In this document: positions 54,482 to 64,000 of the stretch, piece by piece
Layout: every line of letters starts with the position of its first letter
How positions within the stretch are numbered: position 1 is the stretch's first letter
Assembly: GCA_044344255.1 (NCBI GenBank)
Contig: JBIJDH010000001.1
Location: 1 to 64,000, forward strand
Direction: 5' to 3'
Origin: Myxococcota bacterium
GTDB taxonomy: Bacteria > Myxococcota_A > UBA796 > UBA2385
DNA length: 64,000 nucleotides
Notes under the pieces: model-generated
Seen by the model: the letters and a program-made list of their open reading frames with translations, nothing else
What the model was told of the DNA's origin: nothing
The model's database searches: none
Translations under genes and position numbers: made by a program

Positions 54482-57400
54482 TCAAACCGACCCGGCCGGG
54501 GCCCGGCGTCGCCGGAGCCCGATGGCCGCGACCAGGGCCAGCGCGGCGAGCCCACGGGCGCCGAGGGGCCCCGACGCCAGGGTGGGCACGGCGCTGCAGC
54601 CCCCCTTCAGCTCTTGAGAGGCGCGGTCGTCCAGCGCCTTCCAGGGGTTCGTCCCGTCCGCGACCTCCTCGCCGTCGGTTGCGCCGCCGCCGTCGGTGTC
54701 CGGGTCATTCGGATCGGTGCCCAGCGCCGCCTCCTCGAGGTCGGAGAGGCCGTCGCCGTCCGAGTCCAGGCCCACATCATCGCCGACGCCGTCACAGTCG
54801 TTGTCCTGACCATCCTCGAGCTCCGCCGCCCCCGGAAACACCGTGTCGTCCTGGTCATTGCAGTCGCCATCGGGATCGGTGGCCGAGCCCTCTCCCCCAT
54901 CGACACAGTCGAGGTCCGTCGACTCCACCGTGCCGGTCCCGTCGGCGCGATAACCGTCGCCGTCCTCATCGAGGAAGCAGACCTCACCCCCGTCGCAGTC
55001 CTGGTCTCGACCGTCGTCGACCACCTCGTCGGCGCCGGGGTGGACGTCGGGGTCGGAGTCATTACAGTCGCCGCGCGGCACGCCCGCGGCCGCCTCGTCG
55101 TCGTCGACACAGTCGGCGTCGAAGGAGGTGACAGTGGTATCGACCCGCCAGAGATCGCCGTCGCCGTCGCGATAACAGAGCTCGCCGCCGTCACAGTCCT
55201 GATCGATCTCGTCACCGACAAGCTCGGTGGCGCCGGGGTGGACATCGGCGTCGGCGTCGTCGCAGTCGCCGCCCTCGACGTCGGTTAGGGCCTCGCCAGG
55301 GTCGGTGCAGTCGCCGTCCGCCGAGGGGATGAAGGTGTCGTTGCGGTAGCCGTCTCCATCCGCCTCGCCGTAACAAGCCTCGCTGCCGTCACAGTCCTGA
55401 TCGATCCCATCCCCCACCACCTCGGTGGCGCCGGGGTGCACGGCGGGGTCCCCGTCATCGCAGTCGCCGTTCGAATCGGAGGCGCGGCCCTCTCCGCTGT
55501 CGCTACAGTCCTCGTCGAGGGAGGGGAGCGTGCTGTCCAGACGCCAGGAGTCATTGTCGAAGTCAACGTAACAGAGCTCGCCTCCGTCACAGTCCTCATC
55601 GATCTCGTCGCCCTCGATCTCGAGGGCCCCGGGATAGACCGCGCCGTCGGCGTCGTCACAGTCATCCGCGGGATCGGCAGAGAGGGCCTCGCCGGAGTCA
55701 CTGCAATCCGCATCGGTGGAGACCATCGTGGCCGAGACCCGGTAGCCGTCATCGTCGCCGTCCCGGTAACAGAGCTCGCCGCCGTCGCAGTCCTCATCGA
55801 CGGCGTCACCGGGGATCTCCACGGCGTAGGGGTGGACGGTGGCGTTGGTGTCGTCACAGTCGCCGGAGGGCTCGCTCCCCCGCGCCTCCCCCGAGTCGCT
55901 GCAGTCGCTGTCCGACGAGGAGACGGTCGAGGTGATCCGATAGCCGTCATCGTCGGCGTCGGCGTAGCAGGTCTCCTTGCCGTCGCAATTCTGGTCGAAG
56001 CCGTCGCCCGTGGTCTCGGTGGCGCCGGGGTTGACGGTGGCGTCGTTGTCGTCGCAGTCCCCGGAGGGGTCGGCGCTCGTGGCCTCGCCGGAGTCGGTGC
56101 AGTCCGTGTCGGTGGAGGTGCGCCAGGTCGAGACGCGGTAGCCGTCATTGTCGGCGTCGGTGTAACAGGTCTCCTTACCGTCACAATTCTGATCGACGCC
56201 GTCCCCCACCGTCTCGGTGGCGCCGCTGTAGATTGTGGCGTCGCTGTCATCACAGTCATCGCTGCCGCAGTAGCCGTCTCCGTCGGCGTCGGCGCAGCCG
56301 CTGAACACATAGACGGCGCCCGCGTTGCTGCTCACGCCATAGGCGCCCACCGCCACGTCGTCGTAGCCGTCTCCGTCGGCGTCGCCGAGGCCGTCGCACG
56401 ACGCGCCGAGGAAGCCCGAGCCGGAGATGGTGGTCATGTCGGCGCTGCTCAGGCCGGAGGCCGAGCCCGACAGGACGTAGGCCTCGTTCACCCCCGAAGA
56501 GCCGGCGATGATGTCGGCGTAGCCGTCCTGATCGACGTCTCCTGCGTCCCCGAGGCAGGTGCCGAGCTCGGTCGCCGAAGCGCCCGAGTAGCTCACCGCG
56601 GCTGCGCTCTGGATGCCGGCGCTGCTCCCATGGTACACCGCGAAGTAGCCGGCGTTCGCACCATAATCGGGAGCCGCGGCCAGGATGTCGTCGTAGCCGT
56701 CCCCGTTCACGTCGCCGGCCGGAGAGACCACCGCCCCGAAGTTGCTGGCCGCCTCCGGCGAGCTGAGGCGGACGGCCGCGGTGGTGCTGAGGCCCGAGGC
56801 GCTGCCGTGAAAGAGCGAGACCCGCCCCGCCTGCGCGCTGTAGTCGCCGTTGCCGACCACGAGGTCGTCGTAGCCGTCCCCGTTGACGTCACCGGCGCCC
56901 ATCGCCGCGCAGAGCGGGCCCGACGTGAGCGTGAAAGAGGCGTGCACCGAGGTGCTCACCCCGGTGGCGGTGCCGAGGTAGGCGCGCGCGTAGGCGCCCT
57001 GGCAGATCCCCAGCACCACGTCGCCGCGACCGTCGCCGTTGACGTCACCGGCGTGCCCGACCGAGTAGATCCAGGACGTGGCCGTCAGGGTGGTGGTGGC
57101 CGTCGTGGAGACGCCGCTGGCGCTCCCGAGATAGACATAGGCCGTATAGGGGCTGGCGTTGCTGGTGCCGACGATGACGTCGTCGTATCCGTCATTGTCG
57201 ACGTCTCCCGCCGTATCGACGGAGTAGCCGAACCAAGCCGCGGTGTGCGAGGCCGACAGGGTGGTGGCCGCCGAGGTGCCCACCCCGCTGGCGCTCCCAT
57301 GATAGACCCAGGCCCGACCGTTCTGGGAGCCGTACATGAACGACCCGACGATGAGGTCGCCGTAGCCGTCGTTGTTGACGTCACCTGCCCCCGCGAGTGA

Positions 57401-58291
57401 GATGCCGAGCCAGGCCCCGGCGCTGCCGCTGATGGTGGTGGTCGGGGAGCTGTAGAGGGGATCAACCTCAACCGGATAGACCGCGCCCGCGTCGTCGACC
57501 ACGACGCGCAGCGTGTCGCCCTCCGCCTCGAAGTGGATCGGCAAGGGCGCACCCCGGGCGTCCCAGGCGGAGAGGTCACCCACGTCGAGGAGGGCGCCCC
57601 CGGCGCCGAGCAGGCTCGCCCGCTGGCCGGCCTCTTCCAACTCAAAGGTCCCGCCAGGCGCCCGCGTGTCGAAGCGCAGCGGACCCGACCCCGCGGGGGG
57701 CTCTTCCACCGTCCAGCCCTGCTGGAGCCCGGTGTCGTGACCGCCCCACCAGGCGATGAGGCCGTCCTGCGCGTACTCGAGGCGGCGGACGCAGTCGCCC
57801 GACGGATCGAGGGCTGGGCCGAGGCAGGCCCCGAGGGCGGGCGTGGCGGCGGGCAGGGCGATCGCGCGGTCGAGCCGGCCCCAGGCGACGAGCTCGAGGT
57901 CGAGCGCCTCGTCGTCTACAGACAGCGTGGGCCCGCGCCCGCCGAAGCGCGCCGCCAGCCCCGCGGCGGGGAGGCTCACCCGGGCCACCCCATCCAACAC
58001 CTCGATGGCGCTCCGCCCCGCGCTCACCCGCTGGAGGAGCTCCGCCCGCCACACCGCAGCGCTGGAGGGGGCCTGGAGGGAGGCCGGCGCCGGGGCCCCT
58101 TCGCCGAGGTGCGCGGTGTCGTCGCCCTCTCCCGCCCCGCCTGGCGCCCCGCAGCCCGCGAGCAGCGAAGCGCCGACCCACAACAGCAGGCCGCCGGGCC
58201 TCACGCGCCCCTCCCCGGCGAGGCGACAACCGGCGGAGGCGCGCCGGGAGCGGGGCGGGAGGTCGGTCACCGGGCGTCCACTCGCGGTCAT
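54482..58291 (-). CDS. Large surface protein: 7 FG-GAP (integrin-alpha-like) repeats, 8 Cys/Asp metal-binding repeats, MYXO-CTERM-like tail
   Basis: Seven GDVxxDGYxD-type motifs; eight DCDD..A.V.PGA.E..DG.DQDCDG units; tail GGCS...LAALALVAAIGLRRRR. Confidence 0.88.
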   Translation of the reverse strand: MTASGRPVTDLPPRSRRASAGCRLAGEGRVRPGGLLLWVGASLLAGCGAPGGAGEGDDTAHLGEGAPAPASLQAPSSAAVWRAELLQRVSAGRSAIEVLDGVARVSLPAAGLAARFGGRGPTLSVDDEALDLELVAWGRLDRAIALPAATPALGACLGPALDPSGDCVRRLEYAQDGLIAWWGGHDTGLQQGWTVEEPPAGSGPLRFDTRAPGGTFELEEAGQRASLLGAGGALLDVGDLSAWDARGAPLPIHFEAEGDTLRVVVDDAGAVYPVEVDPLYSSPTTTISGSAGAWLGISLAGAGDVNNDGYGDLIVGSFMYGSQNGRAWVYHGSASGVGTSAATTLSASHTAAWFGYSVDTAGDVDNDGYDDVIVGTSNASPYTAYVYLGSASGVSTTATTTLTATSWIYSVGHAGDVNGDGRGDVVLGICQGAYARAYLGTATGVSTSVHASFTLTSGPLCAAMGAGDVNGDGYDDLVVGNGDYSAQAGRVSLFHGSASGLSTTAAVRLSSPEAASNFGAVVSPAGDVNGDGYDDILAAAPDYGANAGYFAVYHGSSAGIQSAAAVSYSGASATELGTCLGDAGDVDQDGYADIIAGSSGVNEAYVLSGSASGLSSADMTTISGSGFLGASCDGLGDADGDGYDDVAVGAYGVSSNAGAVYVFSGCADADGDGYCGSDDCDDSDATIYSGATETVGDGVDQNCDGKETCYTDADNDGYRVSTWRTSTDTDCTDSGEATSADPSGDCDDNDATVNPGATETTGDGFDQNCDGKETCYADADDDGYRITSTVSSSDSDCSDSGEARGSEPSGDCDDTNATVHPYAVEIPGDAVDEDCDGGELCYRDGDDDGYRVSATMVSTDADCSDSGEALSADPADDCDDADGAVYPGALEIEGDEIDEDCDGGELCYVDFDNDSWRLDSTLPSLDEDCSDSGEGRASDSNGDCDDGDPAVHPGATEVVGDGIDQDCDGSEACYGEADGDGYRNDTFIPSADGDCTDPGEALTDVEGGDCDDADADVHPGATELVGDEIDQDCDGGELCYRDGDGDLWRVDTTVTSFDADCVDDDEAAAGVPRGDCNDSDPDVHPGADEVVDDGRDQDCDGGEVCFLDEDGDGYRADGTGTVESTDLDCVDGGEGSATDPDGDCNDQDDTVFPGAAELEDGQDNDCDGVGDDVGLDSDGDGLSDLEEAALGTDPNDPDTDGGGATDGEEVADGTNPWKALDDRASQELKGGCSAVPTLASGPLGARGLAALALVAAIGLRRRRAPAGSV
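54789..56290 (-). repeat. Coding tandem repeats of about 200 bp (Cys/Asp-rich units)
   Basis: Recurrent gccgtcacagtcct../cgcagtcgcc motifs at about 198-nt spacing. Confidence 0.8.
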
Positions 58292-59254: not shown

Positions 59255-59287
59255 ACCCAGACACCGTCGTCCCCGGGAGAGGTGTCC

Positions 59288-60673
59288 ATGCCGCGCGCCC
59301 CCGATCCCGCCTGGGTCGCCACCACCCGCTTCGGCCTCGGGGCCCGCGGCGGCGAGCTCCGCGCCGCGCGGGCCGATCCCCGCGGCTGGCTGCTCGCCCA
59401 GCTCGACCAGAGCGCCGATGAGGCGGGCCTCAGCACCCTGTCCGGCACCCGCGATCTCCTCGTCCAGGTGGGGGATGTGCGACGCGAGGCTGACCCCGAC
59501 ACCGCGCGCCGCGAGGCCCGCCAGGCCGCGGCCGCCGTGCTCCAGGCCGAGGCCGAGGCCCGGATGCGGGTGGCCGGCACCACCACCACCCCCTTCCGCG
59601 AGCGCTGGCTGCGCTTCTGGTCGAACCACTTCACGGTCTCGGCGCAGCGGCTGCTGGTCACCGCCTTCTCCGGCGCCTTCGAGCGAGAGGCCATCCGCCC
59701 CGCCGTGCTCGGCGCCTTCTCCGAGCTCCTGCTCAGCGTCTGTCGGCACCCGGCGATGCTCGTCTACCTCGACAATTCGAGCTCGATCGGCCCTCACTCC
59801 GAGGCCGGCCTCCGGCGGGGCAAGGGGCTCAACGAGAACCTCGCCCGCGAGATCTTGGAGCTGCACACCCTCGGGGTCAACGGCGGCTACAGCCAGGCCG
59901 ACGTGATCGCGCTGGCGCAGATCCTCACCGGCTGGGGGGTCGTGCGCCGCCCCGACAAAGACCAGGGCCGGGTCGGGCCCTTCGTCTTCAACCGCGACCG
60001 CCACGAGCCGGGCACCAAGCGCCTGCTCGGCCGCGACTATGTCGAGCAGGGCGAGCTCGAGGGCCGGGCCGCCCTGCGAGACCTCGCCGCCCACCCGAGC
60101 ACCGCCCGCTTCATCGCCACCAAGCTCTGCCGGCACTTCGTCCATGACACGCCGCCCGAGGCCGCGGTCGCCACGCTGGAGCGCCGCTTCCTCGACACGG
60201 GGGGCGACCTCCGCGAGCTCGCGGTGGCCGTGGTCGGCCTGGAGGCGGCCTGGACCCGCGGCGGCAGCAAGGTCAAGACCCCCGACGAGCTCTTGATCTC
60301 CACCGCGCGCGCGCTCCAGCTCGGCGGCGGCGAGACGGGGTCGAGCGGCCGCTGGGGCGAGCGCGACTGGGCCGCCACGGCGGTGACCGAGTGCGCCGCC
60401 CTCGGGCAAGCCGCCTTCCAGGCCCCCTCCCCCGCCGGCTGGTCCGAGCTCGCCCGCGACTGGGCCGGGCCGGGGCAGGTGCTCCGCCGGGTCGAGCTGG
60501 CCGAGGCCGTCGGTCGGCAGGCCCGGGCGCGGGTCACCGACCCCCTGAGGTGGGCGGGCGAGGTGCTGGGCGCCGAGCTCGAGGGCCCCCTCACCGAGGC
60601 CGTCCGCGGCGCCCCCGACACCGCCGCCGCCATCACCTACGTCCTCGCCAGCCCTGCCTTCCAGCGGAGGTGA
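59288..60673 (+). CDS. DUF1800 family protein
   Basis: FWSNHF, PAMLVYLDN, NENLAREILELHTLG, ends ASPAFQRR. Confidence 0.9.
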   Translation: MPRAPDPAWVATTRFGLGARGGELRAARADPRGWLLAQLDQSADEAGLSTLSGTRDLLVQVGDVRREADPDTARREARQAAAAVLQAEAEARMRVAGTTTTPFRERWLRFWSNHFTVSAQRLLVTAFSGAFEREAIRPAVLGAFSELLLSVCRHPAMLVYLDNSSSIGPHSEAGLRRGKGLNENLAREILELHTLGVNGGYSQADVIALAQILTGWGVVRRPDKDQGRVGPFVFNRDRHEPGTKRLLGRDYVEQGELEGRAALRDLAAHPSTARFIATKLCRHFVHDTPPEAAVATLERRFLDTGGDLRELAVAVVGLEAAWTRGGSKVKTPDELLISTARALQLGGGETGSSGRWGERDWAATAVTECAALGQAAFQAPSPAGWSELARDWAGPGQVLRRVELAEAVGRQARARVTDPLRWAGEVLGAELEGPLTEAVRGAPDTAAAITYVLASPAFQRR

Positions 60674-60676
60674 CCC

Positions 60677-61957
60677 CTGCTCGATCGACGCCGCCTGCTC
60701 ACCGGGATGCTCCACGGTGCCGCGCTGCTCGGCGGCGCCTCCCTGCTCGGGCTGCCCGCCCTCCACCCGGGCCGCCTCGCCTTCGCCGCCGGGGCGGGGG
60801 ATCGCCGCCTGCTCGTGCTGATCAACCGAGGGGCGATGGACGGGCTCGGCGCCGTGCCCGCCCACGGTGACCCGGCCTATCGGAGCGCGCGGGGGGCGAT
60901 GGCGCTGGACCCGGTCGGCGGCGGCCCCGGCGGGGTGCTCGATCTCGACGGCCACTTCGGCCTCCACCCCGCGCTCGCCCCCCTCCACCCGTGGTGGGCC
61001 AGCCGCGAGCTCGGCCTCGTCCACGCCGTCGCCCTCCCCTGCCGCACCCGCTCGCACTTCGACGCCCAGGACGCCCTTGAGGGCGGCGCCGCCACCCCGC
61101 ACGGCGCGCCCGACGGCTGGCTCAACCGGGCGCTGGGCCGAATGAAGCCCCGCGGCGCCACGCCCACCGCGATCGGCCCGAGCCTCCCCCTGCTCCTCCA
61201 GGGGCCCGCCGCCGCCACCTCGGTGGACCTCGCCCACGACACGGAGCTGTCCGACGACCTCCTCGACGTGATCGCCGCGCTGTACGCGGGTGACCCGCTG
61301 CTCGGCCCCGCCCTCCAGGAGGGGCGGGGGAGCATGCCGGTAGCGCAAGAGCGGATGCAGGAGGAGCCGGCGACGATGGGCGGAGGGGGACTTCGGCGGC
61401 GCCAGGCCTCCCTCCGCTCGGTGGCCACCGCCGCGGGGGCCCTGCTCGGCCGCGCCGACGGCCCGAGGGTCGCCGTGCTCGAGACCGGGGGCTGGGACAC
61501 CCACAGCGGCCAGGGCACCACCGTCGGGCGCCTCGCCCGCCAGCTCAGCGGCCTCGCGGGGGGCCTCGAGGCCCTCAAGGCCGGCATGGGGGCGGCCTGG
61601 TCCGACACCATCGTCGTCATCGTCTCGGAGTTCGGGCGCACCGTCGCCGGAAACGGCACCGGCGGCACCGATCACGGGACCGGCGGCGTCGTGATGCTCT
61701 GCGGCGGTGCCGTGGCCGGCGGGGTCGTGCGCGGGGAGTGGCCGGGCCTCTCCCCCGACCGCCAGTTCGAAGGACGCGACCTCCTGCCCACCACCGACCT
61801 CCGCGCGGTCTGGAAGGGCGTGCTGCGCGACCACCTCGGCCTCGACGAGGCGGCGCTGGCCGAGGTCGTCTTCCCGGACAGCGCCGCGGTGCAGCCGATG
61901 GAGGGTCTCTGTCGGGACGGCGCGCTCAGTCGGCCAGCTCCGCCTCGATCACCGTGA
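60677..61957 (+). CDS. DUF1501 family protein (Tat-like signal); probable CTG start
   Basis: RGAMDGL, RSHFDAQ, GGWDTH, SEFGRT, GTDHG; DRRRLL lies upstream of the first ATG (60707). Confidence 0.88.
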   Translation: MLDRRRLLTGMLHGAALLGGASLLGLPALHPGRLAFAAGAGDRRLLVLINRGAMDGLGAVPAHGDPAYRSARGAMALDPVGGGPGGVLDLDGHFGLHPALAPLHPWWASRELGLVHAVALPCRTRSHFDAQDALEGGAATPHGAPDGWLNRALGRMKPRGATPTAIGPSLPLLLQGPAAATSVDLAHDTELSDDLLDVIAALYAGDPLLGPALQEGRGSMPVAQERMQEEPATMGGGGLRRRQASLRSVATAAGALLGRADGPRVAVLETGGWDTHSGQGTTVGRLARQLSGLAGGLEALKAGMGAAWSDTIVVIVSEFGRTVAGNGTGGTDHGTGGVVMLCGGAVAGGVVRGEWPGLSPDRQFEGRDLLPTTDLRAVWKGVLRDHLGLDEAALAEVVFPDSAAVQPMEGLCRDGALSRPAPPRSP

Positions 61958-63824
61958 CCATCTCTTCAAGCTCGAACGCGTTGTTCGCATAGACGACGAC
62001 CCCGTCCGTGCCGATGATCCAGTCTTGCGGATAGGCGGCCGACGGAAAGGCCATGAGCTGGTTGTAGACCTCCGAGACCTCGCCGTCCGCATCGACGAGG
62101 ATCGGGAAGCTCAGCCCATACGCGTCGCGGAAACGCTCGAGCGCGTCCACGGGCTCATGGCTCGCGATCCCCCAGACCACCACGCCCTGCTCTTGATACC
62201 GCTGCCACACGCTCAGCTCGATGTCCGAGACCTCGGACGGACAGGCTGGTCACCAGGTAGCGAAGTAGACCAGCACCACCGGCACCCCGGCCTGGAGGGA
62301 GAGCTGGTGGACCTCGCCGTCGAGGTCGGGGAGCGCGAAGTCGGGCGCGACCTCTCCCAAGGCCACACCCACCCCCCGCTCCTCGGCGACGACCGCGATC
62401 TCGCGCTGGGGGTCGTCGGGATCGTCCGTGTTGAGCCGAACCGAGGCGGACACGGGCTCCCCCGCGGAGAGGGTGAGGCGGAGGTGACCCTCCCCGCCCG
62501 GCGGCACGGTCTCGGCGGTGGACTCGACGGTCAGGCGCTCGCTGCTCGGGCAGACCCCGCGCAGCGACAGCGCCGCGCCGCCGAGGTTGGCGAACGCGAT
62601 CTCCACCGAGCCCCCCTCCGGAGAGAGGTGCAGCGTGTCGGCGCCCAGGCGGAGGTCGGGGCCGGAGCGGCCGAGCGCGGCCTCCTGCACCTCGAGCCAC
62701 CCCCAGGCCGCCACCACCGCGCGGTCACCCTCCGCGGCGAGCCCCATCGCCCACTGATCGGTCCCCTCCGTGCCGATGGGGGTTGGGAGGAGGGGGTCCG
62801 CGAGGTCGAAGGCGACCGTGCCCTGGAGGTCGGCCACCCAGAGGAGCTCCGCGGTGGCCCCCAAGCCGACCGCGCTGCCAAGGATGGACAGGGCGCCCTG
62901 GCTGTCCGGGGCGTCCGGGTCTGACAGGTCAAAGACCTCGACCCCCGCCCCGCCCTCGGCGGCGTAGAGCGCGCCGCCGTCTGCCGACAGGGCGAGGTCC
63001 ATCACCGCCCCAGCGGTGGGGAGCGTGGTGAGCACGGAGAGGCCGCCCGCCGAGCTGTCGAGGACCGAGAGGCCGGCGGCCCCACCCGCGACGTAGATCC
63101 GATCGCCCCAAGCAACCAGCTCCCAGATGTTGCCGAGCCCCGCTACGCTCCCCGCCTCGACGGCGCGGCCCTCGGCGTCCACCTCGAGCCGCAGCACCCG
63201 CCCGTCCAGCCCTCCGACGAAGAGGCTGTCCCCCACGGCGGCCATCCCGGACAGGCCGGGCTCGAGCCGCAGGGGTGAAGTGCGGAGCGCCGCAGGGTCA
63301 CGCGCGTCGATGCGCCACAGACCGCGGTCGCGGTGGGTCGCATAGACCACGGCGTCCGGGCCCCCCGCCTCGAGGTGATAGTAGCGGCCCTGGGCCTCCA
63401 CCGCGTCGTCGTATCCGATCAGGGCCGGGGCCTCGGGCACGGAGAGGTCCACGACAAAGAGGCCCCCCTGTCCGACCAGATAGGCCACCTGCCCGTCCGG
63501 GGAGAGCTCCACCTCCAGGACCTCGGCCAGCACATCCTCTTGAAGGAAGAGGGAGCCGACCGGCCACAGCGGATCGCGCGCGGGGTCCGGCGCCGACTCG
63601 GCCGAACAGTCCGTCGGCAGGGGAACCCACTCGGCCGCCGGCGCGCCGGTGTCGGGGGCGTCGGCCTCGTCGGCCGGCCCATGCCCCTTCCCGCCGCCAG
63701 GGCGGTCGTGGCCGCAGCCGACGAGCGAAGCGCCGAACACGAGCGCCGACAGGCCGGGGGCCGCGCCAGAGCCAGCGGGAGCACAACGGCGAGAGAGAGC
63801 ACGAGTGCGTGGGCGGGAGGTCAT
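61926..63824 (-). CDS. Probable selenoprotein: lipoprotein with LVIVD-type propeller, Ig-like domain and TlpA/AhpC-TSA redoxin domain (UxxC)
   Basis: APDFALPDLDG...VVLVYFATW-TGA-PAC continues in frame into the 61926-62210 ORF (FPILVD, YP.DWIIGTDG); hairpin 11 nt after the TGA; lipobox LVGC. Confidence 0.85.
62214..62249 (-). promoter_or_regulatory. Candidate bacterial SECIS element
   Basis: After the UGA: 11-nt spacer, then GUCCGAG-GU-CUCGGAC (62238-62223); lower pairing CAGC/GCUG. Confidence 0.7.
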
Positions 63825-63946
63825 CCGGTCTCCTGACCGCCCATAGCCGAGCCGGCGGCGTCGGCAAGGGAGCCGCCGGACACGGCCGGCCCAGCGACGG
63901 CGCCCCCCCCGCGGCGCAGGCGGGGGAGCCGCGATAGCAGCCGAGC

Positions 63947-64000
63947 ATGCCGACGCTCAGCCCCCTCCTCCTCTCCCACCTGCTCCTCGTCCGCTCCGCC
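63947..64000 (+). CDS. Possible 5' end of a secreted protein running off the window
   Basis: ATG then MPTLSPLLLSHLLLVRSA, signal-peptide-like. Confidence 0.3.
   Translation, partial: MPTLSPLLLSHLLLVRSA

Follow-up and report, generated by a model that had tools for sequence, protein, structure and literature searches.

A probable selenocysteine redoxin lipoprotein fused behind a beta-propeller and an Ig-like domain in a Myxococcota bacterium

Selenoproteins with a UxxC motif (U being selenocysteine, Sec) on a thioredoxin (Trx) fold have already been catalogued—Table 1 of a 2026 catalogue lists a 'Prx-like thiol:disulfide oxidoreductase' (PF00578), an entry (cd02966) called 'thiol-disulfide isomerase-like', and a 'Redoxin family' (PF08534), and the portion of that text available to us likewise includes exported bacterial selenoproteins (PMC13188914). 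Among other redoxins, pneumococcal Etrx proteins are lipoproteins fed by CcdA, according to the accessible part of the source (PMC3914529); the excerpt available on NHLRC2 describes a CCINC motif facing a conserved cleft with a beta-propeller, and the Trx-propeller cleft has been proposed to select the target (PMC6107167). Here we describe a gene on the minus strand of a 64,000-nucleotide stretch of DNA from a Myxococcota bacterium (assembly GCA_044344255.1, contig JBIJDH010000001.1, positions 1 to 64,000; hereafter the window). As far as the accessible parts of the catalogue go, the gene shares with the catalogued UxxC selenoproteins a common Pfam domain, the UxxC motif, an in-frame UGA, and a canonical bacterial Sec insertion sequence (SECIS); in contrast to them, its redoxin comes last in a fusion protein that begins with a lipobox and continues with a seven-bladed LVIVD propeller and an immunoglobulin (Ig)-like domain—a distinction drawn against the text of the catalogue. 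The gene is a known kind of selenoprotein, a UxxC redoxin, in a fusion that neither the 2026 catalogue nor NCBIfam covers.

The open reading frame (ORF) that starts at the ATG at 63824 gives 524 amino acids and stops at the TGA at 62252-62250, right behind VLVYFATW. With this TGA read as U, the frame goes on as UPACPSEVSD... for 107 further codons to the TGA at 61928-61926, for a total of 632 residues; the preliminary description of this DNA had placed the TGA at the first-Cys position of FATW-U-PAC in just this way, and the reading holds. The Pfam AhpC-TSA match (PF00578, residues 490-612, E 1.3e-23, 83.7 bits against a gathering score of 26, motif U-P-A-C) crosses the TGA, as does the match to the Redoxin model (60.8 bits). 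The apparent internal stop almost certainly encodes Sec, and the gene one 632-residue protein, with the following features (all on the minus strand):

61926..63824, minus: full gene, 632 codons plus the terminal TGA, one internal TGA read as Sec (sequence, reading frame)
63830..63834, minus: Shine-Dalgarno-like AGGAG, 5 nt ahead of the ATG (sequence)
62250..62252, minus: in-frame TGA, predicted Sec525 (sequence, conservation, other runs)
62223..62238, minus: predicted bacterial SECIS hairpin with a GGUC loop (62232-62229) on a 6-bp stem, 17 nt past the UGA, inside the SEVSD codons (hairpin tests, comparison)
63714..63824, minus: predicted lipoprotein signal peptide (residues 1-36) and lipobox Cys37 (63716-63714) (sequence; lipidation putative)
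63606..63608, minus: Cys73 in the N-terminal arm (co-occurrence with the Ig-domain Cys)
62670..63578, minus: seven-bladed LVIVD-type beta-propeller, residues ~83-385 (model, structure match, LVIVD)
62385..62654, minus: Ig-like beta-sandwich, residues ~391-480, HYDIN/ASH/DUF1573-like, with Cys425 (62552-62550) (profiles, model)
61929..62366, minus: ResA/TlpA-like thioredoxin-fold redoxin, residues ~487-632, with U525-P-A-C528, Glu531, and Pro599 at the cis-Pro position (profiles, model)

Homologues were collected in two sets. In the first, a search of 40 relatives, with paralogs fetched, gave 71 redoxin matches, seven of which (short lipoprotein redoxins without a propeller) were dropped before counting; the remaining 64 loci, from the window's own genome and 30 of the 40 relatives, carry TGA at the Sec column in 61 cases and TGT or TGC in three, and all of them continue for 104-114 codons past this column before a stop. 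One locus, L085, ends at a contig end without its redoxin. The second set, after five neighbouring CxxC redoxins among 37 matches were dropped, adds 32 loci (31 with TGA, one a degenerate CxxA). Combined, TGA stands at the Sec column in 92 of the 96 loci, with CxxC in three and a degenerate form in the last, at identities down to ~25%—an in-frame UGA aligned to the Cys of homologues, as in bacterial selenoproteins, so that the proposal made from a single sequence is borne out by the alignment. In a sample of the phylum the family occurs in at least 35 of 301 genomes, a lower bound because a single query (E 1e-22) was used and only four candidates were scored per genome. Copy number reaches nine in one genome (G022) and six in another (G002), and tandem pairs of the propeller-Ig-UxxC gene occur at L063 (G019:C161) and L139 (G151:C35); no paralog with the full architecture was found in the window's own genome.

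Protein databases mostly hold the gene in truncated form. FATW forms the C-terminus of all 18 database homologues with a query coverage of 75-81%, and of a 98%-identical database protein too; among 39 family-sized matches of a profile search, 29 break off at the Sec position, one stops three residues earlier, seven are full-length CxxC proteins (one of which falls in the cluster of the L050-type gene), and two lack both catalytic residues. Names, where given, are 'hypothetical protein' and once 'peroxiredoxin', and some calls of the gene are 496 residues long, a length consistent with initiation at GTG codon 29. Among Atlas clusters of similar length, the nearest consists mostly of Myxococcota, and one homologue is labelled Deltaproteobacteria; Fidelibacterota-dominated Atlas clusters score 0.95 with the N-terminal part. 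Three full-length homologues (P0082, P0162, and L134) miss one or both active-site residues, and P0082 and P0162 retain the three domains and W374-type conservation; their sequences suggest a non-catalytic role.

The bacterial SECIS model, as given in the accessible part of the catalogue, has a loop of 3-9 nt with G as its first base and a spacing of 16-37 nt (PMC13188914); the hairpin behind our UGA satisfies it with a GGUC loop, 6 bp, and a 17-nt spacing, at -7.6 kcal/mol in a simplified hairpin test and -9.1 in a local fold. Across the family the hairpin comes in two registers, a 6-bp stem and a 7-bp stem with a 3-nt loop, the latter in about half of the genes. Each gene was set against 2000 synonymous recodings drawn in proportion to that gene's codon usage: a perfect stem in either register was found in 58 of 61 TGA genes (1.78 expected) and in none of the three Cys genes. 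The compensatory changes are of several kinds: in the 30 genes with SEVSD the pair of Ser codons reads TCC/TCG (22), TCG/TCC (7), or TCT/TCG (1), with no other pairing; L030 and L074 replace a G-C pair by C-G at the cost of an Asp-to-Glu change; and L041 has an A-U pair in the stem. The Cys genes L051 and L052 share the SEVPD peptide with their Sec sister L079 without the stem. The simplified test of the published model is passed by 54 of the 61 TGA genes and by 23 of 31 held-out ones, where 1.03 would be expected. The hairpin conservation that the preliminary description had asked of a true selenoprotein is therefore present.

The Sec machinery, which was to be sought beyond the window, is present in the genome as well: selA (E 5e-144), selB (2e-79), and selD (1e-76) all score above their TIGRFAM cut-offs, and a tRNA-Sec (selC), whose anticodon ARAGORN reads as TCA, exceeds the Rfam gathering score. 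The genome's selD (G000:C52:342596, L010) appears by eye to be fused behind an N-terminal NADH-dehydrogenase-like domain and carries Cys (CGGCAAK) and not Sec. An alternative genetic code was ruled out: TGA terminates 2164 of 2707 long coding-like frames in the genome, and as the main stop it implies site-specific recoding and not a changed code. The gene selA is found in all 35 family carriers as against 190 of the 301 genomes of the phylum sample, although kin are not independent in this count; in G014 the TGA gene is present and selA was not found in the 78%-complete assembly. Sequencing error is unlikely as the source of the TGA, since the codon reads the same in contigs of two other public runs, neither of them flagged as a possible source—X13 record 2 spans 61759-62883 with no differences, and X9 record 20 spans 61822-64000 with nine, none of them at 62250-62252—and the read check thus favours the TGA. 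The stretch recurs in lake, river, and freshwater metagenomes, where 19 of 24 listed rows, eight of these being possible sources, hold at least half of its words. From the sequence comparisons taken together, we regard Sec decoding at codon 525 as very nearly certain.

Sec and Cys have exchanged within the family. On a 98-row FastTree and a 37-row LG tree, both built without an outgroup, the nine Cys rows of the larger tree need five changes among 87 Sec rows, at least four of them forced by well-supported branches; six of the nine are database proteins, known as protein only. The approximately unbiased (AU) test on the 37 rows rejects a single Cys clade (p 0.0004). Repeated Sec-to-Cys reversion would be the parsimonious reading of these unrooted trees, by parsimony only; such changes are called rare in prokaryotes in the accessible part of the catalogue (PMC13188914).

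The AlphaFold model, built for residues 60-632 on a 37-sequence alignment, has a predicted local distance difference test (pLDDT) score of 93.1 and a predicted template modelling (pTM) score of 0.93. At the N-terminus, the lipobox LVG-C37 contains a Cys that is invariant at its column in 37 of 37 database homologues, 8-38 residues from the start; on this basis the product is very likely an exported lipoprotein anchored by Cys37. Of 69 sequences, 34 have both Cys73 and a Cys in the Ig domain, 28 have neither, and seven have only one of the two; the Ig partner sits at position 463 in 32 sequences, as in most homologues, and at 425 in our protein and its nearest relative. The model and this co-occurrence suggest that the pair is probably a structural disulfide joining the N-terminal arm to the Ig domain, and the pattern points to a dispensable disulfide and an oxidising compartment.

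The propeller's best structural match is WDR61 (3ow8; Z 33.7, root-mean-square deviation (rmsd) 2.0, 277 aligned residues), tied among WD40-type folds. LVIVD matches 28 of 37 family members and stays below threshold in our protein (E 0.0056), whereas AhpC-TSA matches all 37; the propeller, Ig-like, and UxxC redoxin order behind a lipobox that was first proposed is thus recovered by the model, with the LVIVD assignment itself sub-threshold in this protein. Strand topology (DSSP) puts the conserved residues that do not belong to the repeat (E101, Q119, R147, R165, M360, and W374) on the propeller's top face, with conservation among 69 sequences of 0.84 for E101, 0.78 for R147, 0.81 for R165, and 1.0 for W374; conserved bottom-face residues are mostly the repeat Asp. 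As a sign of function in the model this is suggestive only.

The redoxin has the hallmarks of ResA and TlpA—a Trx fold, a beta-hairpin insert, C/UxxC, and an invariant Pro (P599) at the cis-Pro position. Compared with ResA, TlpA, StoA, and Etrx, ResA gives the top NCBIfam match, which is also the best for 37 of 37 family members, and the top PDB profile matches; in structure, the domain resembles ResA 1su9 (TMt 0.90, rmsd 1.8). Glu531, three residues past the second Cys, we take to correspond to ResA Glu80. In contrast to Bacillus ResA, our protein has Sec for the first Cys, two extra domains, and a conserved, family-specific 6-residue insertion ahead of the cis-Pro position; it scores 67.9 bits against a ResA cut-off of 170 (NF002854) and stays below every NCBIfam cut-off. 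It has in common with NF041054 (ResA-like WAxxUGC) that both are TlpA-like selenoproteins, but ours lacks the UGC and scores 29.7 against 300; with NF041425 (OS_HP2/DUF1573) it shares an Ig-like domain, but its Sec lies in the redoxin and not in the Ig domain, and the score is 16.3 against 100. NHLRC2 and SOQ1 likewise unite a Trx-like domain, a propeller, and a beta-sandwich in a single chain, but our order is propeller-Ig-Trx and not Trx-propeller-Ig, with seven LVIVD blades as against six NHL blades and UxxC in place of CC(I/V)NC. These differences place our protein outside that group; identity is 13%, and the likeness is probably a convergent analogy.

The preliminary description had called the architecture uncharacterised, and this stands for the fusion: the text of the 2026 catalogue, in its accessible part, does not contain the terms LVIVD, propeller, or lipoprotein (PMC13188914), a second paper does not mention Myxo, redoxin, or a fusion (PMC13326102), a third gave no term match either (PMC12013277), and no paper on a propeller-Ig-UxxC fusion turned up in the literature searched, although homology searches in BSepDB may have captured the redoxin part under an unspecific name. 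Taken separately, UxxC redoxins and exported selenoproteins of bacteria were in the catalogue before.

Taken as a whole, the explanation that we favour with moderate confidence is a Sec redoxin lipoprotein acting as a propeller-guided disulfide reductase. SelB with Sec-tRNA would decode codon 525, a UGA, under the direction of the hairpin that lies 17 nt downstream, and the product would be exported and anchored by Cys37 as a compact propeller-Ig-redoxin unit in which a disulfide probably ties the N-terminal arm to the Ig domain. The U525-x-x-C528 site would act as an extracytoplasmic reductase or isomerase: its selenolate would attack a thiol target in the oxidised state, most probably a disulfide of an envelope protein; the conserved propeller top face would most likely bind the target or cap the active site. 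By analogy with ResA and the CcdA-fed Etrx lipoproteins, the Se-S bond would be re-reduced by a membrane protein of the DsbD/ScsB type whose gene lies at another place in the genome; a full ORF of this type (L121, G000:C36:419746-422490) has a transmembrane domain, a WCLTC thioredoxin domain, and, apparently, two N-terminal Cys-pair domains ahead of the transmembrane domain. For the propeller-guided protein-disulfide-reductase role itself, argued from these analogies, we put the chances slightly above even. A bolder version, which we offer tentatively and would not expect to hold in full, makes the top face and the Sec site one composite active site in a substrate-selecting extracytoplasmic selenoenzyme, convergent on the NHLRC2/SOQ1 design with permuted domains, with up to nine paralogs per genome differing in specificity and several Sec-to-Cys reversions.

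Several results weigh against this account. The Sec reading is a comparative one; the sole RNA contig, 239 nt at a depth of 4.4, does not cover the TGA. Seven of 61 and eight of 31 TGA genes fail the simplified hairpin test, and this loose test is passed, with another spacing, by one of the three Cys genes (L050). The sequences are related, which makes the counts overstate independence; the TCG/TCC swap falls in a single clade. Shuffled versions of the 103-nt region fold as well as the region itself (z 0.52); whole-region folding (z 0.52, 1.11, 0.20, -0.81) was discarded as SECIS evidence, being uninformative in 71% GC DNA. RNAalifold on all 61 sequences jointly gives no consensus structure, and the 6-bp register pairs only 66.4% of cells, with a -1 slide scoring higher (75.6%, covariation 0.312). 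A single consensus hairpin for the whole family was accordingly rejected; half of the family lies in a register shifted by one base, which explains both the failed joint fold and the better slide. As to function, mean conservation of the top and bottom propeller faces is nearly equal (0.46 and 0.43), and the two full-length homologues that lack both catalytic residues sit poorly with an enzyme. Within flanks of ~1.5-2 kb no neighbour is conserved across the family and recurrent ones are confined to two to four close relatives, so the substrate is not readable from context; ccdA, resB/C, and msr were likewise not found next to the family loci in these flanks.

The alternative that survives best, although we think it unlikely, keeps the selenoprotein and makes it a small-molecule redox enzyme acting on a peroxide, sulfoxide, organohalogen, or Se/S compound, with a ligand in the propeller pocket or a SOQ1-like relay to a second site. 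The conserved polar and aromatic residues of the top face (E101, R147, R165, W374) would suit such a pocket; Foldseek lists SOQ1 (7djl, 510 columns, TMq 0.32), whose C-terminal domain is, in the accessible part of the source, a methionine sulfoxide reductase fed by the Trx domain (10.1101/2024.11.01.621559), and there are weak matches to PrxQ and deiodinase-related models. However, peroxidase and deiodinase models score far below their cut-offs, and the peroxiredoxin motif PxxxT/SxxC(U) is absent (LVYFATWU here, in contrast to PAAATGGU in L100, the genome's other, PxxxTxxU-type selenoprotein). Since 28 of 69 homologues lack the extra Cys pair, an essential internal relay is unlikely.

We consider it distinctly improbable that propeller and Ig domain serve only as an unspecific scaffold or spacer at the surface, in the manner of LVIVD adhesins, carrying an independent, ordinary electron relay of the ResA/TlpA type. 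LVIVD propellers and such Ig domains are common in giant repeat proteins, short lipoprotein UxxC redoxins without a propeller occur in the same genomes, and the propeller faces differ little in conservation; yet the three domains keep a fixed order (in 61 of the first 64 loci the frame is open upstream for at least 380 codons, and contig ends cut the remaining three), the family-specific insertion is conserved, and the pTM suggests a defined domain arrangement. That the TGA is a nonsense mutation or sequencing error, separates two genes, or encodes Trp or Gly, as the many database homologues ending at FATW might suggest, has next to no chance and is refuted by the conserved TGA, natural Cys homologues, the covarying hairpin, the Sec machinery, the other runs, and the use of TGA as main stop.

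Around the gene, the neighbours are a convergent pair and a divergent gene without a Pfam match:

59282-61957, plus: DUF1800-DUF1501 pair; the DUF1501 ORF runs convergently into the selenoprotein gene, sharing 32 bp with its 3' end (profiles)

Elsewhere in the family, a small CxxC redoxin gene adjoins the family gene in four loci of one subclade and at L061. The subclade neighbours (L133, L137, L141, and L149, with two at L141) are AGWCxPC-type redoxins and possible relay partners. Relatives also encode short lipoprotein U-x-x-C redoxins (L082, L083, L086, L087, L088, L089); several short lipoprotein redoxins show, by eye, Asp-rich calcium-binding-like repeats, and a CxxC version lies beside the L061 family gene. 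In the window's own genome, three of 31 other AhpC-TSA matches also contain a TGA, each with a 7-8-bp hairpin and a loop G at the same position as in our gene; by sequence, these are probable further unannotated selenoproteins: a lipoprotein peroxiredoxin with PxxxTxxU (L100, G000:C18:120695-121048), a lipoprotein WUGSC redoxin (L113, G000:C59:223192-223482), and a SelL/AhpC-like GUTFC protein (L115, G000:C51:89204-89488). Within the window, 54482-58291 (minus strand) encodes a 1269-residue exported protein that, judged by eye, has FG-GAP-like repeats, numerous 'DCDD...PGA.E..D..D.DCDG' repeats rich in Cys, and a C-terminal tail resembling a sorting signal; Cys-rich envelope proteins of this kind are a candidate substrate class.

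The finding adds a large, multi-paralog selenoprotein family that databases mostly store as truncated 'hypothetical' propeller proteins, and it means that the selenoproteomes of such bacteria of aerobic habitats (freshwater here) are under-counted. With Sec, Cys, and catalytically dead forms all occurring in nature on the one scaffold, the family offers a test bed for why bacteria keep Sec, and the two SECIS registers, which have reshaped the coded peptide (SEVSD versus LEVPD), offer a test of how a SECIS constrains a coding region. As a soluble, well-modelled bacterial Trx-propeller enzyme, the protein could be a tractable analogue for the substrate question posed by NHLRC2-type proteins.

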